From positions 82,083 to 146,082 of the forward strand of contig JAPLZF010000009.1 in assembly GCA_026395175.1 (NCBI GenBank): DNA of 64,000 nt. Direction: 5' to 3'. Of the stretch, positions 1 through 60,345 are shown piece after piece. The notes beneath the pieces were generated by a model that saw nothing but the letters and a program-made list of their open reading frames with translations, ran no database searches and was not told where the DNA came from. The position numbers and the translations under genes are program-made. Numbering within the stretch: the first letter of the stretch is position 1; the number at the start of each line of letters is the position of its first letter. Source of the stretch: Candidatus Staskawiczbacteria bacterium (GTDB taxonomy: Bacteria; Patescibacteriota; Minisyncoccia; Minisyncoccales; Staskawiczbacteraceae).

Positions 1-86
1 GTTCTACGTTGAACACGTTCAGGTTGCCGTTCGAATTGAGAATGTATAAAACGTCATCTGTGCCACTGCCCCTTGAATACTCTCAG
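1..86 (-). pseudogene. 3' fragment of a paralog of the GC-rich family gene at 417-1055. The minus-strand translation ...DDVLYILNSNGNLNVFNVE matches ...ILDSYGDLLVFSVEH of that gene, and the fragment runs off the window edge
   Basis: DNA 1-45 is about 80% identical to 515-560. In that frame a TGA lies just upstream with no Met before it. The flank at 60-100 is homologous to the flank at 17975-18015 of the second cassette. Confidence 0.35.
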
Positions 87-416
87 AGCTGTATATTATT
101 CGGCATCTTTATGCCTTAACGTTTTACACCAAGTAATCTTTATTTTTAGCAAATCAGGAGCGACTCTCACAAAAGCCTTGACCATTGTGACTCTGCGCTT
201 TCCTGAAATTCAGAATTCGGCAGCCTGAAGCCGTAACCGCAGACATATTCGCCTACTATCCTAAACATATTCTATCATATTGAAATAAAAAAAGAACCCC
301 TCGATACAAGTTGCAAACTTTGCAAAATGCGCCGAGAGGCCTGTGTCGCCAAGGGTTCAAGAAACCATGTGTCCGATGAAGGACAAGGGTTCCAAGTGCC
401 CAGAGGCAACTTGAGA

Positions 417-1055
417 TTACTTGCGGGGACGGCGGAAGACGAGCTGAGCGCCTGGACTCCAGAGATAGCCGGGATTAGCATAGTCGCTGCCGAGATACAC
501 GCCATCGCCCCCGTGCTCTACGCTGAACACGAGCAGGTCGCCGTACGAATCGAGAATGGGTTCAGAGCAAATTCTGAGCCATTCACCTTTGGGCTGATCC
601 TTGTACTGCCGACGCAGTTGCGGTCCGTCTTCCGTTCCGCACAACTCCAGTCCGAACCCGAGGGCTCGCTCGTAAATCCTGTCACGGCGAGTGGCTTCCG
701 TGAAGCCGAGTTCTGCGACGCTGGTTCGGACCAGGTCAACTTCCATTTCCGTGGCCGAGACGACGAAAGCATCCTTGTTAAGCATGTCGTCAGCCCAGTC
801 GCTGATATTCATACCGGCCTTCTTCATGGCTTCGCGGAAACCGTTGGCGTCCTTGAACCCGACACCGAGCTTGATGGTCCGCCAAACGGGAAACTCCCGT
901 GGCTCAATGAACATTCCTTCAACTGCCCGCTGGAGAAACTTATTCAGTCCCTCCGGATCATACGGATAGCCTCCGGGTTGCCTCATCTGCCGCTTGATCT
1001 CCGCTAACTTCCCATCAACATTGAAATACTGATCGCCAGTGAGTACAATACCCAT
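417..1055 (-). CDS. Hypothetical protein, member 1 of a GC-rich paralogous family (about 212 aa), C-terminal motif LLVFSVEHGGDGVYLGSDYANPGYLWSPGAQLV
   Basis: Long minus ORF in a visibly GC-rich segment. The internal ATG at 1055 is preceded by AAAGGAG-N7; the ORF-track start at 1121 lies inside the leader hairpin and is probably spurious. The antisense ORF 327-1007 has a low-complexity R/L/P composition. Confidence 0.55.
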   Translation of the reverse strand: MGIVLTGDQYFNVDGKLAEIKRQMRQPGGYPYDPEGLNKFLQRAVEGMFIEPREFPVWRTIKLGVGFKDANGFREAMKKAGMNISDWADDMLNKDAFVVSATEMEVDLVRTSVAELGFTEATRRDRIYERALGFGLELCGTEDGPQLRRQYKDQPKGEWLRICSEPILDSYGDLLVFSVEHGGDGVYLGSDYANPGYLWSPGAQLVFRRPRK

Positions 1056-1245
1056 GACAATCTCCTTTCTATTTTGCCCGCCGTTAGGACAGGCTGTTTG
1101 ACTGCCACTATTAGCAGTCATAGCCAGAAAACACCGAATAACATCAGTATCTTTTGGCTACGACTGCTAGTTTCGCAAGTATTTGATTATAAATGTACAA
1201 TCTTTACCAATTATTAATTATACACCCATAATGAGTCTTTGTCAA
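1056..1245 (-). promoter_or_regulatory. Conserved promoter-leader cassette L1: sigma70-like TTGACA (1240-1245, rc), 17 nt spacer, TATAAT (1217-1222, rc), then a roughly 130 nt 5' UTR with a long hairpin at 1113-1168
   Basis: The -35, 17 nt spacer and -10 are all consensus. The 14-bp stem agcagtcatagcca / tggctacgactgct can extend to about 20 bp. The same element recurs at 18945-19146 and 60205-60345. Confidence 0.6.
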
Positions 1246-1967: not shown

Positions 1968-2025
1968 GAATTAATACTAACAAAAAAACTCCCCTGCGTG
2001 CAAGGGAGTTTTTTATATTTTATAA

Positions 2026-4194
2026 TTAAATCTTTTCTGCCATTATTGGGTTAACTTGCTCGTCAACAATTTCTAAAGTTGCAGCTATTGTTTCCATTGG
2101 AAAAGCAAACTCTTTTCTTTGCTGGTATTCTTCTTGTTTACCTTTATGCCATTGTTGAACTGGCCTAATATAGCCCACAACCCTTGAATAAACTTCACAT
2201 GGCTGTTTTATGGTGCATTGCGGGCATTCAAAGTGTTCGCCGGAAATATAACCGTGCGTTGGACAAATTGAAAATGTCGGGGTTAAAGTAATATACGGCA
2301 GGCTGTAATTTTCAAATATTTTTTTGACTAAATTTTTTGCCTGGTTGGGGTCTGAAATATTTTCTCCCAAAAATATGTGCAAAACTGTTCCGCCGGTGTA
2401 TTTTGTCTGAATGTCATTTTGCAAATCCAAAGCTTGGAAAACGTCATCTGTAAATCCAACCGGCAACTGGCTTGAATTGGTGTAAAAAGGAACTTCTTTT
2501 GTGCCGGCTGTAATAATATCTGGGTATTTTTCTCTGTCGGTTTTTGCCTGCCTGTAGCTTGTGCCTTCTGCCGGAGTAGCTTCCAAATTATACAAGTTTC
2601 CTGTTTCTTCTTGAAATTTAATCATGGTATCTCTCATAAAATCCAAAATTTCAATTGCAAATTTTCTTCCCTTTGGAGTTGTAATGTCTTCTTCCAAAAA
2701 GTTAAGCAAAGATTCATTCATTCCGCAAATTCCAATTGTTGAAAAATGATTTCCAAAATAAGTATTTCTCATTTTTTTCATATCTTCCAAATAATGCCTT
2801 GAATACGGGTAAAGCCCTTTTTCCATAAAGTTGTCCAAAGCTTTTCTCTTAATTTCCAAGCTTTCTTTTGCCAATTCCATTAAATGAGCCAGCCTGGCAA
2901 AAAATTCTGTTTTTGTTTTTGATGTATATCCAATTCTCGGCAAGTTGATTGTTACCACTCCAATGCTTCCTGTTTTTGGCGAAGAACCAAACAACCCGCC
3001 TCCTCTTTTGTATAATTCCCTATTGTCCAGGCGCAACCTGCAACACATACTTCTTGCATCATCCGGGCTCATGTCTGAATTAACAAAGTTTGAAAAATAA
3101 TTGATTCCATATTTTGCCGTAGCCTCCCACATTGCTGTCAAATTCGGATTGTCCCATTCAAAATCTTTTCCAACAGAAACCGTCGGAATTGGAAAAGTAA
3201 ACGGCCTTCCCGATGCGTCGCCTTCCATTAAACCCTCGTAAAAAGCTTTTATAAACATATCCATTTCCGGCTGAAATTCCCCATAAGTTTCATTTTGCGC
3301 CTCGCCCCCAATAATTACCGGCTGTTTTGCCAAGTGCGAAGGCGGTTTAATGTCCAAAGAAACATTTATAAACGGAGTTTGGAAGCCAACTCTTGTAGGC
3401 ACCATGCAATTGTACAAAAATTCCTGCATCGACTGCTTTACCTGCTTGTAATTTAAATTATCATATCTGATAAACGGAGCCAGCAAAGTGTCAAAATTTG
3501 AAATGGCGTTTGCCCCTGCTGTTTCGCCCTGCAAAGTAAACAGCGCGTTTACCAATTGCCCCAGCGCAGTTCTAAAATGTTTTGGAGGCCTGCATTCTAT
3601 TTTTCCATAAACCCCGCCAAATCCTTTCACCAAAAAATCATACAAATCCCAACCGGCGCAATAAGGAGCCAGCAATTCCAAATTGTGAATGTGAAAATCT
3701 TCGTTGGCTGCAGCCTCGCGAATTTCTTTTGGATAAATTTTATTCAGCCAATATTTTTTTGAAATATACGAGCCGACATATTGGTTTAACCCCTGCAAAG
3801 AAAAAGTCATATTGGCATTTTCTTTTACCTGCCAATCAATTTCTTTTAAGTAGCTGTCAATTTTTTCTGAAGATTCGTCAACCGCTTGTGACGCTTCCCT
3901 AATTGTTCTTCTTTGCTCTCTGTATAAAATATATGCCTTGGCTGTTTCAACCAAATCTTCCAGCATCAGAGCCTCTTCAACAATATCCTGAATTTGCTCA
4001 ATTGTCGGAATTTCACTTTTTTTGAACCTGCGATTGAGCAAGCTCAAAACTTTTTCTGAAACTCTTTTTGAAACTTCCCCGTCTCCCTGGTTTGCGGCAA
4101 CAACAGCTTTGTGAACTGCTTCTTCAATTTTTTTTATTTCAAAATCAACGACTCTTCCGTCTCTCTTCCTAATTTTTTCTATATTATTTTCCAT
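2026..4194 (-). CDS. nrdD: Anaerobic ribonucleoside-triphosphate reductase (class III)
   Basis: N-terminal ATP cone, C-terminal glycyl-radical region RVVGY, and a Cys-rich zinc ribbon CPQC. Confidence 0.9.
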   Translation of the reverse strand: MENNIEKIRKRDGRVVDFEIKKIEEAVHKAVVAANQGDGEVSKRVSEKVLSLLNRRFKKSEIPTIEQIQDIVEEALMLEDLVETAKAYILYREQRRTIREASQAVDESSEKIDSYLKEIDWQVKENANMTFSLQGLNQYVGSYISKKYWLNKIYPKEIREAAANEDFHIHNLELLAPYCAGWDLYDFLVKGFGGVYGKIECRPPKHFRTALGQLVNALFTLQGETAGANAISNFDTLLAPFIRYDNLNYKQVKQSMQEFLYNCMVPTRVGFQTPFINVSLDIKPPSHLAKQPVIIGGEAQNETYGEFQPEMDMFIKAFYEGLMEGDASGRPFTFPIPTVSVGKDFEWDNPNLTAMWEATAKYGINYFSNFVNSDMSPDDARSMCCRLRLDNRELYKRGGGLFGSSPKTGSIGVVTINLPRIGYTSKTKTEFFARLAHLMELAKESLEIKRKALDNFMEKGLYPYSRHYLEDMKKMRNTYFGNHFSTIGICGMNESLLNFLEEDITTPKGRKFAIEILDFMRDTMIKFQEETGNLYNLEATPAEGTSYRQAKTDREKYPDIITAGTKEVPFYTNSSQLPVGFTDDVFQALDLQNDIQTKYTGGTVLHIFLGENISDPNQAKNLVKKIFENYSLPYITLTPTFSICPTHGYISGEHFECPQCTIKQPCEVYSRVVGYIRPVQQWHKGKQEEYQQRKEFAFPMETIAATLEIVDEQVNPIMAEKI

Positions 4195-5206: not shown

Positions 5207-6427
5207 TTATGGGATGAAGTTTCTGATCCATTTTCTAAATCCAGAGCCCCATCCCTTGGTAAGTCCTAATATACCATCTTTTGAGCCAGAATCAACCCCT
5301 TCCAAAGCCAATCCCGCAACAGTTGCCAACGCCGGGTCTTCTTGAAGCCCTATAATGCCTTTCGGCCTGCCAATTTCGCAGGAAAGATTCAATGTTTCTC
5401 TCACAAGCTCTTTTATTTTTGGAATTTTAGCTCCACCGCCTGTCAAAACAACTCCTCCCGGCAACAACTCCTGCCTGTTAATTTTTTTCAACTCTTTTTG
5501 CACCAAGTCCAAAATTTCAGAAACTCTCGGCTCAATAATGTCCACCAAATTTTTCTTTGTGAAACTCAAAGAATCTGATTTGTCAAAAACTTCTATTCTC
5601 TTTTTCGACTGGTCCAATCCTTTTTCTGTTTTTGAAGACATGCAAGTTCCATGTTGTTTTTTAATTGATTCTGCAATTGCCACGTCTGTTTTCAGACCAA
5701 TAGCAATGTCGTTTGTAATGTTTGCCGAGCCAATTGGAAAAACAGCCAAGTGCATCAGCTCGCCTTCTTCAAAAACTGCCAAAGATGTTGTTGCAGCCCC
5801 AATATCAATTAAAGCCACTCCCAGTTCTTTTTGTTGCGGAGTCAAAACAGCGTTGGCTGCTGCTAAAGGCGAAGGAATTACATCATTTATCTGCAATTTT
5901 GCAGCCAAAACAGCTTGGGTAAGCTTTATAAAATAAGGAGAAAAAACGCACAACAGCAAAACTTTTGCTTCCAATCTTACGCCGGTAAGGTCTTCGGGCT
6001 GTTTTATCCCTTTCTGGTCGTCAATAATAAATTCTCTGGGAATAACGTCTAAAACTTCATCATTTCTGGAAATATTTATTGCTCTTGTCGCCTGCAAAAC
6101 CCTTTCAACATCTTCTTTTGAAATTCTTTGGTCTGCCCTAGAAACAGAAATTATTCCGTCGGAAGGAGTAACATACAAATGGTTTCCGCCAATATTCACA
6201 AAAACAGAATTGATTTTCCTGTTGCAGTCTTTTTCAATTCCCGAAATTATCATCTGCACATTTTTTGCCGTTTCTTCCACAGAAACCACAGCACCCTTTC
6301 TCAGCCCAAACGAAGGAATTTCCGCATACGACAAAACTTCCCAGTCGTTTCCATTTCTTTGAGCCACCAAAGCTTTTATGCTGTGCGTCCCAATATCTAA
6401 ACCTGTGACAATGTCGGCTTTCGCCAT
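5207..6427 (-). CDS. ftsA: Cell division protein FtsA
   Basis: Actin-like ATPase N-terminus LDIGTHSIKALVA; ftsA-ftsZ gene order. Confidence 0.85.
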   Translation of the reverse strand: MAKADIVTGLDIGTHSIKALVAQRNGNDWEVLSYAEIPSFGLRKGAVVSVEETAKNVQMIISGIEKDCNRKINSVFVNIGGNHLYVTPSDGIISVSRADQRISKEDVERVLQATRAINISRNDEVLDVIPREFIIDDQKGIKQPEDLTGVRLEAKVLLLCVFSPYFIKLTQAVLAAKLQINDVIPSPLAAANAVLTPQQKELGVALIDIGAATTSLAVFEEGELMHLAVFPIGSANITNDIAIGLKTDVAIAESIKKQHGTCMSSKTEKGLDQSKKRIEVFDKSDSLSFTKKNLVDIIEPRVSEILDLVQKELKKINRQELLPGGVVLTGGGAKIPKIKELVRETLNLSCEIGRPKGIIGLQEDPALATVAGLALEGVDSGSKDGILGLTKGWGSGFRKWIRNFIP

Positions 6428-6514
6428 AATGCTATTTTTTAATTTCTAATTTTGAATTTCGATTAAATTTTAAAATTCTAATTTCGAAATTCTGGTTTTA
6501 TTCGAAATTCGAAA
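6428..6514. repeat. Degenerate array of the GAAATTC/TTCGAAA heptamer repeat (family A) in the ftsA-ybeY intergenic region
   Basis: aatttctaattttgaatttcga ... ttcgaaattcgaaatt; it shares a roughly 25 nt core with the copy inside polX at 53899-53937. Confidence 0.6.
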
Positions 6515-6901
6515 TTAAAAATTCAAAATTTCTAAATACTTCTCTTCTTTCTCCTGCATTTTTATTTCTTCTGCTCTGCTTTTCTCGTGGTCATATCCGC
6601 ACAAGTGCAAAATGCCATGAACAAAAACTTCCATTATTTTTTCTTTCTTTTCTTTTACAACTTCCGGACAAATCACAATCTCGCCTAAATAATCTTTTTC
6701 GTTAAACAAAAAAGATAAAACGTCGGTAGGTTTATTTTTCCCGCGATATTTTTTATTAAGCTTTGCAATCTCGGCTTTTTCCACAAAAGCCAAAGATAGC
6801 GTTTCCGTTTCTCTATTTTCGCCTAATAAAACTTTTTTTGCAACCTGTGAAAAACTTTTCTTATCCACAGAAAACTTGGTGAGGTTATTTATCTCTATCA
6901 T
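6515..6901 (-). CDS. ybeY: rRNA maturation endoribonuclease YbeY
   Basis: HGILHLCGYDH metal-binding motif. Confidence 0.85.
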   Translation of the reverse strand: MIEINNLTKFSVDKKSFSQVAKKVLLGENRETETLSLAFVEKAEIAKLNKKYRGKNKPTDVLSFLFNEKDYLGEIVICPEVVKEKKEKIMEVFVHGILHLCGYDHEKSRAEEIKMQEKEEKYLEILNF

Positions 6902-16496: not shown

Positions 16497-16564
16497 AAAT
16501 TTGTTTTATTTTATCACACTTTTTAGGCAATTACAACCCCTTTATAAATAGTCCAAATATAGAA

Positions 16565-16598
16565 AAAAAGTCGGGCTCCAGCATGTGCTAGAGCCCCT
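16565..16598 (-). terminator. Intrinsic terminator (GGGCTC-loop-GAGCCC then a T-run on the minus strand)
   Basis: Hairpin plus TTTTTTT seen in the minus-sense sequence. Confidence 0.5.
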
Positions 16599-16627
16599 CA
16601 AACTTGAAACAGGTACAACAAATGCAA

Positions 16628-16897
16628 CTACCGCCGCAAGCGCAGGGACTGCTTCCTGCACTTGGGCTTATGATGCCCATTGCCATTGCCGTTTTTGCCG
16701 TTGCCGGGGGATTGATCCCTAAAAACCTGCAGGAGCAACTTCCGCATTCCCTTCCGTCCGATGTGTTCCCCGCCATAGCGAGCGTTGAAGATTCTCGCCA
16801 GTTTTGCGATGGCGTCAGAATGCGCATTCGGGGGAACTTGAAATTTCCGTAGAAACCGTACTTGGTCCTCTGGCAACTGCATTGTCGCGTTAAGCAT
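16628..16897 (-). CDS. Hypothetical small basic protein in a GC-rich island (MLNATMQLPEDQVRFLRKF...); gene model uncertain
   Basis: This frame stops about 30 nt before the terminator. The alternative overlapping frame 16588-16968 is Cys-rich and stops inside the terminator hairpin. Confidence 0.3.
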   Translation of the reverse strand: MLNATMQLPEDQVRFLRKFQVPPNAHSDAIAKLARIFNARYGGEHIGRKGMRKLLLQVFRDQSPGNGKNGNGNGHHKPKCRKQSLRLRR

Positions 16898-17061
16898 ACT
16901 CTTTTCCCTCTTCGTTTTTGTTGTGTTTTCCCTGTTTCTACAAACAAAATTGGAAATGAGCTGACCATTCAACCGCCTTTCTCTCGGTTCTTGAATGGGT
17001 TGTTGACAACTAATATCATAGCTCTTTCATAAATTGATGTCAAATGCTATAATTACAAAAT

Positions 17062-17625: not shown

Positions 17626-17841
17626 AAATTTGCGCTTGAATTTTTCTCGTATTCCCGTTTTTTATCAAACCTTATGATTCAAAATACTTTTCATAGTCAA
17701 AATATAAATAATAAAAGCCAGCTTTTAAGCCCCCCCCCCTAAACTTTTGCCTGTTTTAGAAAAATGTAAAGTGATGTACAAAAAGTGGATTGAAATGCAC
17801 CGCAATATTGAAAGAACTGCAAGATTTAGCAAAAGAAAACA

Positions 17842-17949
17842 TTAGCTGGAGATCACCTGGTTGCCGGCATTCCATTCGTTCGGATTCTCAACAGAGTTGG
17901 CGTTCACGTTCCAATAGCGATTGTCAGAGTTCCAGTTCGCGTTCACAGC
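17842..17949 (-). pseudogene. 3' fragment paralogous to the C-terminus of gene 18282-18944 (AVNANWNSDNRYWNVNANSVENPNEWNAGNQVISS*)
   Basis: About 85% DNA identity to 18295-18405. An in-frame TAA lies immediately upstream, so only about 35 codons are intact. Confidence 0.5.
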
Positions 17950-18281
17950 CCAGACCGATTATATGCAACACGCCATCACAACCACTGTCCTTTGAATACT
18001 CTTGGGACTGTATCTTATTTGGGACATAAAAGTCCTCCAGCGCGCTACACCGATTCTTTTCTTTTTTAGAAACTTGCATAATGACGCTTGTTGAAGACTT
18101 GTCCGCAACAATTCTGCAATATACAATTTCAAGGCGCTACGCAAAAGCCTTAACCTCCACGTTCAGCTATCCTTAGATTTATTTTACATTTTTTTGTGAA
18201 AATAAAAAGACTCTCCTTTACTTTTCAAAGTTTCAGAGAGCCATAGATTCTGAGAGTCCAAAGTCCCGAAGGGCTTTAGAG

Positions 18282-18944
18282 TCAAGAATCGCAAGAGAGG
18301 ACCTGGCTGCCAGCAAACCACACGTCCGGATTCTCAACAGAGTAGGCGTGCACGCTCCAATAGCGATTGACAGAGTTCCAGTTCGCGATCACAGCCCAGA
18401 CATTGCCGTCTTTTCCTGAGATATGCATGACGTTCGCACGCCCATTAACGAGCAATTTGCCCTCTTCTCCATGTGCCTGTTTTTTAATCAGGCAAAATAG
18501 GTAAGCGAGGTAAGCTCTGGCAAGATCGCCTAACTCAGCGATGATTTGTGGGTCTTTGGAGTCCAACTCCAACCGATGAATCGCGAGCGTGGCGTCAGGA
18601 ACGTTTTCTTCCACAAGATTGAGGAATTGTTCCTTGAAGACGTCGTTAGTCCAACCGACGTTAGCTTCTGCGAGATGGTCTTTGGCGATAAACTTCTTCG
18701 CGCCATCGACCGACGCCGTCGCAATCTTCATGAGAATACCGCCAACACGCCCACCTTTGGCCAGAAACTGAAGGAAACGTCCAAAGAAATCATCCTGGCT
18801 GTCGTTCACGATTTGTTGAGCAGTGGCACAGGATACGTCCCAATCCATCTTCCCTGTTACCACCTCAACACTCATCTTGATGAATGCCTTGAAAAGCATC
18901 ATCAAAATTTCTCCCAATTGCTCAACACTCATCCTGTCCTTCAT
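18282..18944 (-). CDS. Hypothetical protein, member 2 of the GC-rich paralogous family (C-terminal ...NRYWSVHAYSVENPDVWFAGSQVL)
   Basis: GC-rich ORF with the conserved promoter-leader upstream. Its C-terminal motif NP..W..G.QVL and internal AELG segment are shared with gene 417-1055. Start uncertain (MKDR or MSVEQ); the track start uses TTG. Confidence 0.55.
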   Translation of the reverse strand: MKDRMSVEQLGEILMMLFKAFIKMSVEVVTGKMDWDVSCATAQQIVNDSQDDFFGRFLQFLAKGGRVGGILMKIATASVDGAKKFIAKDHLAEANVGWTNDVFKEQFLNLVEENVPDATLAIHRLELDSKDPQIIAELGDLARAYLAYLFCLIKKQAHGEEGKLLVNGRANVMHISGKDGNVWAVIANWNSVNRYWSVHAYSVENPDVWFAGSQVLSCDS

Positions 18945-19146
18945 TGTATGAACCTTTTTTGCGGCTACTGTTGCTCTCGCCACAAGGCAGAGCAAGCTCA
19001 ACGCATACTGTGGCAACCCTTTGCCACACCAGAAAATTATCTGTTTCTCAAATCTCTTTCTGGCATGGCAAAAACAAGTATTTTTAAATTATAAATGTGC
19101 CAATTTACTATTTATTAATTATACACCCTCTATCAATTATTGTCAA
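18945..19146 (-). promoter_or_regulatory. Conserved promoter-leader cassette L3: perfect TTGACA (19141-19146, rc), 17 nt, TATAAT (19118-19123, rc), plus the leader hairpin (about 19021-19073)
   Basis: caagtatttttaaattataaatgtgccaatttactatttattaattatacaccc aligns to 1170-1235. The hairpin sequence differs from L1 but pairing is preserved. Confidence 0.6.
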
Positions 19147-25025: not shown

Positions 25026-25109
25026 GCCGAGGTGGTGAAATTGGCAAACACGCCGGACTCAAAATCCGGTGCCCTTAAAAGCTTGAGGGTTCAAGTCCCT
25101 CCCTCGGCA
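25026..25109 (+). tRNA. tRNA-Leu (anticodon CAA), long variable arm, CCA not encoded
   Basis: Acceptor stem GCCGAGG/CCTCGGC, anticodon loop CTCAAAA, T arm GAGGGTTCAAGTCCCTC. Confidence 0.8.
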
Positions 25110-25137
25110 CACTTCACTTTGTTCAGTGTGAACAACT

Positions 25138-51034: not shown

Positions 51035-51481
51035 ATGAAGATATTCAGTGAAAACAAAAAGGCGGGGTTTAACTATGAAATCCTAGAGAAGTTTGAAGCC
51101 GGGATGGTTTTGTTTGGCCAGGAAGTTAAATCAATAAAAACCGGGCACATCAATTTGTCCGGGTCTTATGTTGTTTTTAACAGGTCAGAGCCCTATTTAA
51201 CCGGCGTAAAAGTGCCTCCATACCAGCCAAACAACATTGGAGCCGACTATAATGAAGAAAGGCAAAGAAAACTTCTTTTAAACAAAAAAGAGATAGATTA
51301 TTTGGCGGGCAAGACCAAAACCAAGGGTTTTAGCTTAATACCCTTGAAAATTTATGAGAACAATGGTAGAATAAAACTCGAATTCGGGTTAGCCCGCGGA
51401 AAGAAGAAATTCGACAAAAAGGAGAAAATTAAAAAACGGGATGTCGACCGAGAGGTTAATCGCGAATTATCACGGGGATGA
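51035..51481 (+). CDS. smpB: SsrA-binding protein
   Basis: GFNYEILEKFEAGMVL..EVKS SmpB signature. Confidence 0.85.
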   Translation: MKIFSENKKAGFNYEILEKFEAGMVLFGQEVKSIKTGHINLSGSYVVFNRSEPYLTGVKVPPYQPNNIGADYNEERQRKLLLNKKEIDYLAGKTKTKGFSLIPLKIYENNGRIKLEFGLARGKKKFDKKEKIKKRDVDREVNRELSRG

Positions 51482-51827
51482 TTGTTTCGATGACTAGTTC
51501 TTTAAAACAAGGCAAGTTAAGCTTTCTCAGGGCTTATAAATCTTCTGGGAAAAAACATAATTGCTACTAATTTATTTAATAGACAACCAGCATTAGCTTT
51601 CGCTTAATGCGGCATCTCAACCATTGACTCCTAATAAATGGACCTGAGGTGTTATATTATTAGGATAGGAATTCTGAGTCCTTGGCAGATTTCCAAAATA
51701 AAAAGGATAAGATGTTAAAAATTTTGCTATTTCTTTATTTGACATCCTAAAAAACAGAACTAGCTAAACTTGTAGAATTGCTTTAGAAAACTTTTCAGAC
51801 GCGATTTCAACATCGCCATCTCCACCA
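51474..51827 (+). ncRNA. ssrA: tmRNA (SsrA); its 5' GGGGATG pairs with 3' CATCTCC-A-CCA; predicted tag ATNLFNRQPALAFA
   Basis: tRNA-like 3' end GACGCGATTTCAACATCGCCATCTCCACCA and 5' GGGGATGATTGTTTCGATGAC resemble E. coli tmRNA; the candidate tag reading frame ends in TAA; sits downstream of smpB. Confidence 0.75.
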
Positions 51828-57623: not shown

Positions 57624-57877
57624 AAAATTTGCTGCAGAGCAACAAAAAACACCAGCTTTACAGCTGATGGACTTTGTTGGAGGGGGATAATAATTCCTAA
57701 CAAAAATGGATTATTTCTCGAGATAAATTCGGACAATGAATTTATGTATAATACTTATACCCTCTTCGTTAAAAACTATTATGTCCTTGAGGATAAACCT
57801 CGCACCCCCTCATAATAATTATTTTATTCTATTTTAAGCCGATGTCAAATTTTTATTCACTTTTTATCTGCAAGGGC

Positions 57878-57906
57878 TTGACACAATTTTTAGTTGGGAC
57901 TATGCT
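57878..57906 (+). promoter_or_regulatory. Sigma70-like promoter (TTGACA-17-TATGCT) driving a GC-rich orphan transcript
   Basis: Consensus -35, 17 nt spacer, near-consensus -10. Confidence 0.55.
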
Positions 57907-57912
57907 TAAATA

Positions 57913-58412
57913 ACCTAGTGTTCTTCGCGCTTCGCCACAGAAGAGGAAGTAGTACAATACACTACACACGACAAACAACACGATCAACCTGGCGAAAGGA
58001 GGGCCAATAAGCAAGACCCACGAACACTCTTCTGATGAAGAGGCCGAAGACACGATGAGGTGTAGTATAGCCACCATTGTTGTGGCACGCGACGAAGTCG
58101 GAAGACGACAAGGCAAGGAGAACTTCCATGATGCACCGGACAATGATGAAGCGAATCGTCGGCCTGACGATCGCAACGGCCGAAGTAGTGCGCGGTGTCG
58201 AGAGCAACATCGGCGTAACGGCCGGCTAGGTCCAAGTTGCTGTGACCTTGATGGTTGTGTGGCTGGGCTGCCCGCGGGCGAAATTGCTTGCTTCGGCGAG
58301 CGATATCCGGTGGGCAGCCCGCTCACAACAACAGTTCTTTGACATCAACCAGTCCTATCGCATGATAGGACATAACCCAGGAGCAACAACACACACGTTG
58401 CTCAATTTTTTT
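57913..58412 (+). ncRNA. Candidate structured ncRNA or small-ORF transcript (about 500 nt, GC-rich), delimited by a promoter and a rho-independent terminator; no convincing ORF
   Basis: All three minus frames are open (GC artefact). The plus ORFs are low-complexity. Strong internal hairpin gggctgcccgc...gggcagccc. Terminator gagcaac-loop-gttgctc then ttttttt. Confidence 0.4.
58381..58412 (+). terminator. Intrinsic terminator (gagcaacaacacacacgttgctcaattttttt)
   Basis: 7-bp stem plus T7. Confidence 0.65.
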
Positions 58413-59682: not shown

Positions 59683-60204
59683 TCAGTAAAAGTACAGCGT
59701 CACAGAATCTATCTCAATTCCGTAACCATCCCCTCCACTGATGACCAAATAGAGGATACGGTCATCACCACCGCTCTCGACATTGGCCGGGCCGATTTTG
59801 AGGCTTTCAGAAAAAACATTCCAGCCGTTGCCCCCGCTACCGGTACTGCCGGCTGTGAACGAGCCGATAAACTCGGCCCCGACGGCGAGCGTCACCCGTT
59901 CGGATATAGGACTGCCATTATCGTTCGAATACCTGACGCTAACCCACAACTTGGTGGCGCCCGGCGGGACGGAGAAATTCTTATCAATTGACTCGCCGGC
60001 ACGCAGGTGAACCGTCCAATCGTTCTGGGCGTTGCCCCGTTGCTGTTTATAACCGTCTCCTTCAAACTTCTCCGCCGGGATTTGTACCTGTTTGAGCAAG
60101 GGACCGCTTAATAACGGCTGAAGCAGAGAACAGCCCGTCATTACCGGCGCTGTTAACAGCAGCGCCATTGCCAACACCATAAACCACCACTTCGATTTCT
60201 TCAT
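59683..60204 (-). CDS. Lipoprotein, member 3 of the GC-rich paralogous family (C-terminal LYLVISGGDGYGIEIDSVTLY)
   Basis: Signal peptide with a lipobox (VMTGC); RBS AGGAGGG; the conserved leader lies upstream; GGDG C-terminal motif shared with gene 417-1055. Confidence 0.6.
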   Translation of the reverse strand: MKKSKWWFMVLAMALLLTAPVMTGCSLLQPLLSGPLLKQVQIPAEKFEGDGYKQQRGNAQNDWTVHLRAGESIDKNFSVPPGATKLWVSVRYSNDNGSPISERVTLAVGAEFIGSFTAGSTGSGGNGWNVFSESLKIGPANVESGGDDRILYLVISGGDGYGIEIDSVTLYFY

Positions 60205-60345
60205 GACCTTTACCCTCCTGTGTTGCTTAAGCTGCTGCTATAGCAGTCATAGCCAGAAAACACCGACTAATAATATCAGTATCTTTTGGCTACAACTGCT
60301 AATTTCGCAAGTAATTTTTAAGTGTAAATGTGCTGATTTATCAAG
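60205..60345 (-). promoter_or_regulatory. Conserved leader L2 with hairpin (60242-60300); its upstream end overlaps the 3' end of the Mur ligase gene
   Basis: About 90% identity to 1110-1185 over roughly 75 nt; a C-to-T change keeps pairing as G-U. Confidence 0.55.

Follow-up and report, generated by a model that had tools for sequence, protein, structure and literature searches.

The locus analyzed here raises the question of why a gene should be accompanied by a second, partial copy of its own 3′ end, and whether that copy is debris or a donor of sequence. The window, to which all coordinates refer unless another contig is named, is a stretch of 64,000 nt from a Candidatus Staskawiczbacteria contig (JAPLZF010000009.1, positions 82,083 to 146,082). 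The two copies, termed TR2 and VR2 below, are direct repeats 446 nt apart, and the partial copy lies ~330 nt downstream of the full gene. In the initial annotation the partial copy was called a pseudo-copy, and the arrangement was attributed either to gene conversion of the pilE/pilS type or to a scar of tandem recombination.

Repeat pair of cassette 2

18282-18944, minus strand: target gene 2 of a diversity-generating retroelement (DGR), 220 aa (annotated at NCBI as a Candidatus Staskawiczbacteria hypothetical protein, MCX6718143.1)
18284-18401, minus strand: variable region VR2, the recipient, which pairs with TR2
17838-17955, minus strand: template repeat TR2, the donor and former 'pseudo-copy', assigned from its adenine pattern and its likeness to the TRs of intact relatives

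A repeat search of the window paired 17838-17955 with 18284-18401 over 118 nt at 84% identity. The copy of the gene's 3′ end therefore exists and is slightly wider than the 17842-17949 first claimed; the stop codon reported upstream of it was also found, as an in-frame TAA two codons 5′ of the repeat. TR2 spans the last ~38 codons of the gene (translation VWAVNANWNSDNRYWNVNANSVENPNEWNAGNQVISS*), and VR2 terminates at the stop codon of target gene 2. The similarity (blastn within the window, E = 1e-32) is neither low-complexity nor due to chance, and its mismatches are highly non-random, which disposes of the concern that only a short low-complexity stretch was shared.

Mismatches were scored on the coding strand. 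An adenine in TR2 stood against any base in VR2 at 14 of the 19 differences, and 11 of the 12 core mismatches were at TR2 adenines (hypergeometric P = 4e-6 overall, P = 1.5e-6 for the core); at none of the 19 did VR2 carry an A against a non-A in TR2. The adenines of TR2 fall at codon positions 1 or 2 in 30 of 32 cases, with 11 AAY codons, and the TR2 sequence is nearly the same as that of the TRs of intact relatives. The 100-nt core holds a single non-A mismatch, and complete elements carry 0-6. Non-A mismatches were concentrated in the final 18 nt (Fisher P = 0.002), which indicates that the core was overwritten after the tails had diverged. At their 3′ boundary TR2 and VR2 have a common CCAGGT segment followed by diverged tails, an IMH/IMH*-like arrangement with a putative role.

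The count of non-A mismatches was rejected as a measure of decay, given the range of 0-6 in complete elements. The spectra of A-to-N substitutions were uninformative as a fingerprint of the writing enzyme: cassettes 1 and 2 differed (p = 0.018), and cassette 2 also differed from cognate-type relatives (p = 0.03).

Target gene transcript

19118-19146, minus strand: promoter of target gene 2, TTGACA-17-TATAAT, matching the sigma-70 consensus at 12/12 positions
18945-19080, minus strand: 5′ leader of the target mRNA, mainly one long hairpin (MFE -50 kcal/mol)
18260-18277, minus strand: hairpin directly 3′ of VR2 and the stop codon (AAAGCCC-TTC-GGGaCTTT)
18200-18242, minus strand: terminator-like hairpin and T-run closing the target transcript (GGCTCTC...GAGAGTC, then TTTTTATTT)

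The perfect promoter and shared leader had been pointed out before and were recovered here: the promoter runs from 19146 to 19118, and both promoter and leader are common to cassettes 1 and 3 (cassette 1 promoter at 1217-1245). Equivalents of the leader hairpin, with a putative role, are present in those two cassettes, and the same leader lies 5′ of the target genes in the family loci L016, L017, L023, L026/L036 and L065. For the hairpin at 18260-18277, relatives have an equivalent at the same position with other stem sequences, and the alignment includes compensatory variants; by analogy, its position may be that of the inverted repeat flanking the IMH in other DGRs (Wu et al. 2018). A hairpin and T-run occupy the position aligned to 18200-18242 in all family members; this terminator was missed by a simple terminator scan because its loop exceeds 8 nt. 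A Foldseek comparison of the target model with the PDB gave no significant match, and the assignment of the C-terminal domain to a C-type-lectin-like (CLec) fold therefore stays tentative.

Cassette 1 and its enzymes

417-1055, minus strand: cassette 1 target gene, 212 aa, with VR1 at 414-558
50-262, minus strand: 5′ domain of the cassette 1 DGR RNA (nhmmer; pre-TR pattern match at 63-100)
1-44, minus strand: first 44 nt of the 145-nt TR1, the rest of which, followed by the accessory gene avd and a reverse transcriptase gene (RT), lies beyond the window start

The window was extended with L007, a contig that reaches past the window start and on which window position 1 is position 1841; it carries TR1 (1798-1942), avd (1971-2300, minus strand) and RT (2343-3326, plus strand). 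The Avd scored 86.6 bits against the NCBIfam DivGenRetAVD equivalog (cut-off 80) and also matched Pfam bAvd; the RT matched RVT_1 and has the motifs LGNLTSQ and YADD. In this cassette, 20 of 24 VR1/TR1 mismatches were at TR1 adenines (19 of 20 in the core, P = 1e-11). The layout of cassette 1 is the same as that of cassette 2, as the initial annotation had it, and the homology of the two flanks was likewise confirmed (48-103 vs 17967-18022, 75% identical); the fragment placed there at 1-86 did not hold at that length, the repeat within the window being 1-44 only. Targets 1 and 2 have no sequence relation. No further copies or VRs of TR1 or TR2 were found in the window, cassette 3 included. An intact RT-Avd of the same clade lies 17.9 kb from cassette 2.

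DGR RNA

18181-18188, minus strand: putative -10 box (TGTAAAAT) of a separate DGR RNA promoter, from the alignment of family loci
17968-18180, minus strand: structured 5′ domain of the DGR RNA, 213 nt (RNAalifold covariation)

A TAnAAT-like box, often preceded by TG, aligned at 18181-18188 in nearly all of 31 family loci, with a conserved GGATAG motif 7-8 nt downstream; from this conservation the box is predicted to have promoter activity. The 5′ domain was folded from 26 sequences with RNAalifold and comprised six helices and 39 pairs, 27 of which had compensatory changes. Paired cells amounted to 96.4% (39-47% in slid controls), and the covariation score of 0.70 (0.13-0.16 in slid controls) was reached by 0 of 500 shuffles. 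In cassette 2 the domain is closed by an invariant pre-TR element at 17982-18019; none of its 59 conserved positions was changed and one of its 39 pairs was broken. It was detected by nhmmer at E = 1e-46 (cassette 1, E = 1.5e-49), and these two copies were the only ones in the window. At gathering thresholds no Rfam family was assigned to the RNA domain in the window, and cassette 2 together with three intact elements had no Rfam match at E ≤ 1. TR2 is embedded in a conserved, covarying RNA gene, one that adjoins RT genes in many lineages of the Candidate Phyla Radiation (CPR).

Enzyme remnants and post-TR stem-loop

17747-17845, plus strand: avd remnant, a 32-codon ORF with an internal deletion of ~90 codons, from its likeness to the Avd of L016
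17730-17739, minus strand: poly-G tract between avd and RT, collinear with L007 2313-2322, between avd and the RT start
17665-17694, minus strand: remnant of the RT gene start, MKSILNHKV*, ~9 codons (blastn to L007)

The avd remnant (LPVLEKCKVMYKKWIEMHRNIERTARF) matches residues 1-27 of the L016 Avd at 81% identity and then jumps to C-terminal residues. Further on, window 17738-17662 aligned collinearly with L007 2313-2389 (blastn, 71% identity, 84% in the core, E 1e-3 to 5e-3). For comparison, the RT of cassette 1 (RT1) begins MKILTHKYED. No RT was found in the 64-kb window by a six-frame motif scan or by Pfam searches of GC-rich ORFs. As regards DGR membership, cassette 2 has remnants only of an RT and an Avd of its own; since all that is left of the RT is these few codons, it was filed as a degenerate DGR module and not as a complete DGR.

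The deletion in avd also took out the post-TR stem-loop, a GC hairpin with a U-run. All 30 other distinct family loci have this hairpin (the enzyme-less L018 and L020 too), and cassette 2 alone does not. No substitute structure was found downstream of TR2 (z = +1.1). In a published survey, a stem-loop just 3′ of the TR with a putative role in Avd binding was present in 207 of 278 Avd-type DGRs, CPR included, and that of the Bordetella element is essential (Handa et al., bioRxiv 10.1101/2023.10.23.563531). By analogy, the family stem-loop appears to match the Avd-binding grapple of the Bordetella element, or it could be a transcription terminator alone. Outside the deletion there is no damage to the target ORF, to either promoter (that of the RNA being putative) or to any of the 11 AAY codons of TR2.

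Relatives and population data

Homologues of target 2 on the long contigs examined all had their own Avd and RT; in each of L012-L016 the TR, avd (minus strand) and RT (plus strand) follow directly downstream. The TR2-type TR with its AAY pattern is kept beside RT genes across distinct CPR lineages. Enzyme-less modules elsewhere are graded: L020 is pristine, L018 is partly decayed, and L054/L056 have lost the VR or the TR. The L020/L041 module has 12 mismatches, all at A, and an intact stem-loop, with no RT within 6 kb.

The target 2 protein was identical in 15 contigs from several runs, and its 90% cluster had one member. These contigs represent one strain (at least 99.9% identity), in which cassette 1, with intact enzymes, was equally invariant, and the comparison accordingly lacks the power to reveal VR diversification. 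Among ~15 billion catalogued proteins there were no VR2 variants, and likewise none for cassette 1.

Interpretation of cassette 2

The one-directional A-to-N mismatches, the Avd and RT of the sister cassette and the embedding RNA gene together point to mutagenic retrohoming by a DGR. In elements of this kind the TR is transcribed within a structured RNA, an RT-Avd complex makes a cDNA from it with misincorporation opposite adenines, and the cDNA takes the place of the VR, so that AAY codons are recoded in a C-terminal domain that binds ligands. Cassette 2 is an ordinary member of a known DGR system and is probably frozen; we read TR2 and VR2 as a DGR pair and lean towards a module that was disabled recently. 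Cassette 2 is a paralogue of the cassette 1 module, differing from it in its TR and in its target, which is unrelated; a deletion has cost it nearly all of avd, its RT and the post-TR stem-loop. TR2 RNA is probably no longer reverse-transcribable, because the missing stem-loop is retained by all other family members examined and resembles a grapple that is essential in Bordetella. In that case VR2 would preserve, in frozen form, the outcome of earlier retrohoming, and the module would have been disabled too recently for other decay to show. The lack of decay outside the deletion fits a very recent loss and continued use equally.

Continued use is a serious though rather unlikely alternative: cassette 2 would be a still active satellite, its RNA made from its own promoter and its 5′ domain recognized by the RT-Avd of cassette 1. 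This would entail one enzyme pair diversifying two unrelated proteins from two templates, for which we give about one chance in three at best. RT1 shares 66-69% identity with the usual RT partners of a TR2-type TR, and the 5′ RNA domain with its invariant motifs is common to both cassettes and to elements whose RTs are 55% identical to RT1. The RNA domain, TR2, promoters and ORF of cassette 2 are undecayed, the repeat core was overwritten after tail divergence (Fisher test above), the pristine enzyme-less L020/L041 exists elsewhere, and DGR enzymes are known to serve remote targets in trans (Wu et al. 2018). Against this, cassette 2 alone is without the post-TR stem-loop, Avd1 is just 35-37% identical to cognate-type Avds, the other enzyme-less modules resemble a decay series and not a maintained class, and the catalogued proteins hold no variants of VR2, the same being true of cassette 1. 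The enzyme remnants show that the module once had its own enzymes, so that service in trans would be a secondary state.

A broader proposal is that enzyme-less satellites, each a target with a self-promoted TR RNA gene, are functional units and not wrecks; this we consider doubtful. Under it, one RT-Avd would read the 213-nt 5′ domain as a recognition and priming handle and so serve several unrelated targets from several templates, with cassette 2 and L020/L041 as examples.

The earlier view is retained that the promoterless copy is not junk and supplies sequence by which the expressed gene is varied at its 3′ end. The mechanism then suggested, antigenic variation by gene conversion at a pilE/pilS-like locus, taken here as RecA-type transfer from a silent, promoterless 3′ cassette, accommodates a full gene with a partial copy ~330 nt downstream, a layout recurring in cassette 1. 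It is nevertheless very improbable: gene conversion would give no base specificity, whereas the changes run in one direction, from A to N, and fall at codon positions 1 and 2; each gene has a single donor and no repertoire; the donor forms part of a conserved, structured RNA gene that has a putative -10 box to itself; and an RT and an Avd accompany the family everywhere else, including the sister cassette. A functionless scar of tandem duplication or repeated recombination, which would at least yield two direct repeats 446 nt apart, can be set aside almost entirely, since neutral divergence would not restrict the differences to one copy's adenines at the first two codon positions, and the TR with its AAY pattern is conserved in distinct CPR lineages beside RT genes.

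Comparison with known systems

Antigenic variation at Neisseria pilE/pilS draws on several silent copies through homologous recombination and involves no base-specific mutagenesis. Cassette 2 is like it in the one-way flow of sequence from a silent partial copy into the 3′ part of a gene that is expressed, and unlike it in having one donor, adenine-specific changes and, by the DGR reading, an RNA intermediate with an RT.

The closest known arrangement is that of the CPR DGRs of architecture B3, 'TR-(avd)-RT' (DGR clade 2 of Roux et al. 2021, PMC8144416), to which Wu et al. 2018 (PMC5758913) assign 90% of the DGRs of CPR bacteria. These have the same order (target, TR, avd on the opposite strand, RT), the same A-to-N signature between TR and VR, an AAY-rich TR, a Patescibacteria/CPR host, and small targets without a recognizable Pfam domain or signal peptide. 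Unlike them, cassette 2 has only remnants of avd and RT and no post-TR stem-loop, and in the DNA examined its genome has two different TRs, for two targets unrelated to each other, but a single set of enzymes.

With the mechanistic prototype, the mtd-avd-TR-brt DGR of Bordetella phage BPP-1 (Handa et al. 2018, PMC6182149; 2024 preprint), the family shares adenine mutagenesis from TR to VR, an Avd with an RT, TR and VR 3′ ends that are rich in GC, poor in adenine and succeeded by diverged tails, a hairpin directly behind the VR and, in intact members, a stem-loop just after the TR. In BPP-1 avd precedes the TR on the same strand, whereas here it runs antisense and directly adjoins the TR at its 3′ end; the essential structured RNA of BPP-1 (Sp) is downstream of the TR, whereas the 213-nt six-helix domain is upstream of it, after its own putative -10 box; and the target fold here is only tentatively C-type-lectin-like.

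Remote targets served in trans (Wu et al. 2018) are similar in that target 2 lies ~18 kb from the only RT seen; those targets are read as using the RT-adjacent TR, whereas cassette 2 has a different TR and an RNA gene of its own. A limited literature search found no descriptions of enzyme-less target-plus-TR modules; on multiple or orphan TRs its one result was a comment, from metagenomic work, that Treponema has several TRs per individual.

The outcome is mostly a correction of annotation, two 'hypothetical proteins' being DGR targets and the 'pseudo-copy' a template repeat. If frozen, cassette 2 would be a natural example of the death of a DGR, with one deletion removing avd, RT and the post-TR stem-loop while all else stays pristine. 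Modules of a target and a TR without enzymes are no rarity among CPR genomes, and this is relevant to the question of one RT serving several templates. The six-helix 5′ domain of CPR B3-type DGR RNAs could guide work on RT priming and could aid the detection of DGRs in dark-matter genomes, RT-less modules overlooked by RT-centred pipelines among them. The domain is situated outside the 40 nt of upstream sequence that Handa et al. analyzed.

The repeat and the target gene of cassette 2

The window segment was of low GC content (~35%) and carried the housekeeping genes hisS, lepB, pth, mfd and topA. The cassette 2 protein was identical to MCX6718143.1 (NCBI), encoded by a MAG of Candidatus Staskawiczbacteria, which belongs to the Candidate Phyla Radiation (CPR). 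The initial annotation had described a partial 3' copy beside its gene; this was confirmed, with 84% identity over 118 nt (17838-17955 vs. 18284-18401).

Features of cassettes 1 and 2 (window positions unless stated)
19146 to 19118, minus strand: cassette 2 target promoter, TTGACA-17-TATAAT, 12/12
18282-18944, minus strand: cassette 2 target gene, carrying a long hairpin leader
18284-18401, minus strand: final ~38 codons of that gene, variable region (VR2)
17838-17955: fragment, template repeat (TR2), with an in-frame stop 2 codons upstream
17747-17845, plus strand: avd (accessory protein) remnant, ORF reading LPVLEKCKVMYKKWIEMHRNIERTARF, 81% identical to residues 1-27 of the Avd of related contig L016
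17730-17739: poly-G tract, counterpart of the poly-G between avd and RT on L007
17665-17694: reverse transcriptase (RT) remnant, MKSILNHKV*, collinear with the start of RT1, the cassette 1 RT
Just beyond the window start, on L007: avd (opposite strand) and RT of cassette 1, downstream of TR1, placed by contig overlap

Mismatches between fragment and gene were read on the coding (minus) strand. In 14 of 19, the fragment had A and the gene another base (8 T, 4 G, 2 C); no site with A in the gene and another base in the fragment was found across the repeat. Within the first 100 nt this applied to 11 of 12 mismatches (hypergeometric, P = 1.5e-6). The fragment's adenines were at codon positions 1 or 2 in 30 of 32 cases, and there were 11 AAY codons. 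The remaining non-A mismatches clustered in the last 18 nt (Fisher, P = 0.002), the 3'-terminal position in which diversity-generating retroelements (DGRs) have non-identical IMH/IMH* (“initiation of mutagenic homing”) tails (Wu et al. 2018, PMC5758913). Judged from sequence, the pattern is a DGR signature, with the fragment as donor (TR2) and the gene's 3' end as recipient (VR2). DGRs are an already known kind of element, and that cassette 2 belongs to them is close to certain. Of the pilE/pilS-like analogy first proposed, the one-way logic from donor to recipient held but the mechanism did not; cassette 2 would instead work by mutagenic retrohoming, from TR to VR.

Cassette 1 and its enzymes

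Cassette 1 shared the layout of cassette 2, as initially proposed, but its repeat covered only window positions 1-44, and 48-103 was conserved flank. The full TR1 (145 nt) was recovered from L007, a Logan contig overlapping the window start (window position 1 = L007 position 1841). Of its 24 differences from VR1, 20 fell at TR adenines; the core count was 19 of 20 (P = 1e-11). Cassette 1 behaved identically to cassette 2 in mismatch pattern, and the TR/VR, codon-position and boundary features of DGRs were found in both.

No RT was found inside the 64-kb window. The Avd of L007 matched Pfam bAvd and the NCBIfam equivalog DivGenRetAVD (86.6 bits, cut-off 80). The L007 RT (327 aa, RVT_1, motifs LGNLTSQ and YADD) scored below the cut-offs of group II, retron and Drt models. 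Wu et al. (2018, PMC5758913) classify the order target-TR-(avd)-RT as architecture B3 and report it for 90% of their CPR set. Identity to the enzymes usually accompanying a TR2-type TR was 66-69% for the cassette 1 RT and only 35-37% for its Avd, and the target proteins of the two cassettes were unrelated in sequence. The DGR target genes and RNA domain (417-1055, 18282-18944, 17968-18180) had 44-57% GC, whereas avd and RT of the same element (L007 1971-3326) were AT-rich like the host (about 30-35% GC).

The conserved RNA domain

The 56-nt flank seen initially was part of a larger conserved unit. A pattern derived from it, AATAANATACAGNNCNNAGANTN{1,2}TTCAANGGNCAGTGG, matched both cassettes. 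In GTDB genomes it matched 14 loci (among them Saccharibacteria, Doudnabacteria, Sungiibacteriota, Vogelbacteria and Staskawiczbacteria), and JGI metagenomes contained a further 36. The spacer from target stop codon to TR was aligned across 31 loci. A hairpin and T-run ending the target transcript came first, then a TAnAAT-like -10 box (TG often before it), ~213 nt of conserved sequence and the TR, with a GC-rich hairpin and U-run 10-25 nt after it.

RNAalifold (26 sequences) predicted 39 pairs in six helices, with compensatory changes in 27. In this 5' domain 96.4% of cells were paired, vs. 39-47% when partners were shifted 1-3 columns; covariation scored 0.70, vs. 0.13-0.16 in the shifted controls, a value reached by 0 of 500 shuffles. 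The domain comprised a pair of hairpins with a conserved GGYTAMGGCTT motif as cap, a long-range stem with its 3' strand ending beside the TR, and a junction with an invariant pre-TR element. Cassette 2 and three intact elements had no match to this domain in Rfam 15 at E ≤ 1, and the Weinberg RT-10 motif, which corresponds to the Bordetella spacer, is distinct from it. A profile search of the window returned exactly two copies (262 to 50 and 18177 to 17970).

Loss of enzymes in cassette 2 and elsewhere

Of 26 homologues of the cassette 2 protein, the 4 placed on longer contigs (L012, L014/L015, L016) all had a 110-117-nt TR with A-biased mismatches, and in each avd (minus) abutted the TR and was followed by RT (plus). 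The interval from TR2 to the convergent pth gene contained only remnants; in that of avd, ~90 internal codons are deleted between residues 1-27 and the final few residues. Cassette 2 lacked an RT, an Avd and a post-TR stem-loop of its own, and is therefore an incomplete, degenerate module of a B3-type CPR DGR. The remnants show that its enzymes have been lost. The poly-G tract (17730-17739; L007 2313-2322) is 9-10 nt on the element's strand, between the avd and RT starts; it persists in the cassette 2 remnant and could be slippage-prone or regulatory.

Among ~40 assessable loci, several more lacked the enzymes or part of them, in a graded series recurring in other CPR genomes.

Loci of the graded series (by contig)
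L020/L041/L057: pristine; 12 A-only mismatches, ORF and stem-loop intact, unrelated genes directly after (L020, no RT within 6 kb)
L018: 3 non-A mismatches, 10 RNA pairs broken
L054: VR barely recognisable
L056: TR lost
L024/L045: deletion from mid-avd to the RT C-terminus

The series resembles successive steps of loss more closely than it does a maintained class. These recurrent enzyme-less modules and the covarying 5' RNA domain might be worth specialist follow-up. On another contig, L061 (1001-3414), a TR-matching VR was located downstream of the RT (3262-3414), with a hairpin leader (2667-2734) before that target, a variant arrangement of genes in one and the same RNA/RT family.

Activity of cassette 2

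Cassette 2 was probably disabled recently, leaving its VR frozen. This reading was favoured because of the loss of the post-TR hairpin and the stages-of-loss series, weighed against the intact remainder. The avd deletion also took the hairpin, which was found in 30 of 30 other distinct loci (enzyme-less L018 and L020 included), with widely differing stem sequences, and was absent only from cassette 2. No substitute fold was found 3' of TR2, where 210 nt had a less stable fold than their shuffled versions (z = +1.1). Handa et al. (bioRxiv 10.1101/2023.10.23.563531) report that 207 of 278 Avd-type DGRs, CPR members among them, have a putative Avd-binding stem-loop immediately 3' of the TR, and show that the Bordetella element requires it as a grapple for Avd.

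The cassette 2 protein was found exactly on 15 contigs (several runs) and that of cassette 1 on 6. Clusters of both at 90% identity held no VR variants, a comparison without discriminating power because the contigs were of one strain (≥99.9% identity) and VR1, whose cassette has intact enzymes, was as invariant as VR2.

Continued diversification of VR2 in trans by RT1 and Avd1 was considered rather unlikely. It would agree with the undamaged target ORF, both promoters, all TR2 AAY codons and the RNA 5' domain (none of 59 conserved positions altered and 1 of 39 pairs disrupted, as in intact elements), but not with a hairpin missing from this cassette alone or with enzyme-less modules that resemble decay. 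The TR2/VR2 core had one non-A mismatch; complete elements had 0-6 in all.

Target proteins and leaders

The cassette 2 target protein had no match in Pfam or NCBIfam. The family alignment contained an invariant W/A/S scaffold with interleaved hypervariable columns in the last ~35 residues. Fold assignment is tentative, in line with the remark of Roux et al. (2021, PMC8144416) that CPR targets have no recognisable domains and might contain new C-Lec variants. At its N-terminus the L012 target (6001-6642; VVTGDQY...GGSPLDPDWL...VEG) resembled the cassette 1 target (417-1055), and their VR-bearing C-terminal domains were unrelated, which suggests domain shuffling among DGR targets.

The target leaders (18945-19080 and 1056-1181, minus strand) formed a near-perfect ~25-bp stem at the mRNA 5' end (MFE -40 to -53 kcal/mol). 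The same leader was present upstream of DGR targets in other CPR lineages (L016, L017, L023, L026/L036, L061, L065) at 75-88% nucleotide identity; mRNA stabilisation and regulation are possible roles. Cassette 3 (59683-60204, minus strand) encodes a lipoprotein-like product of 173 aa, is GC-rich (~52%) and has a long-hairpin leader (60205-60313, minus strand) that shares 85% identity with the cassette 1 leader. It had no TR, VR or DGR RNA domain, so in this genome neither the promoter nor the leader is confined to DGR targets.

Other features of the window

Between lepB and pth, a small GC-rich gene (16563-17030, minus strand; ~89 aa, MLNATMQLPEDQ...) had its own promoter (TTGACA-17-TATGAT), hairpin leader and terminator; its only Rfam match was sub-threshold, to BjrC68, on the terminator hairpin. 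An island of 51% GC (57850-58400, plus strand), with a promoter-like TTGACA at ~57881, contained no credible ORF and no Rfam family (sole chance-level match at E = 0.5), and may be an undescribed structured RNA. The only Rfam/ARAGORN matches in the window were as follows.

51474-51827, plus strand: tmRNA (95.8 bits)
25026-25110, plus strand: tRNA-Leu(CAA)
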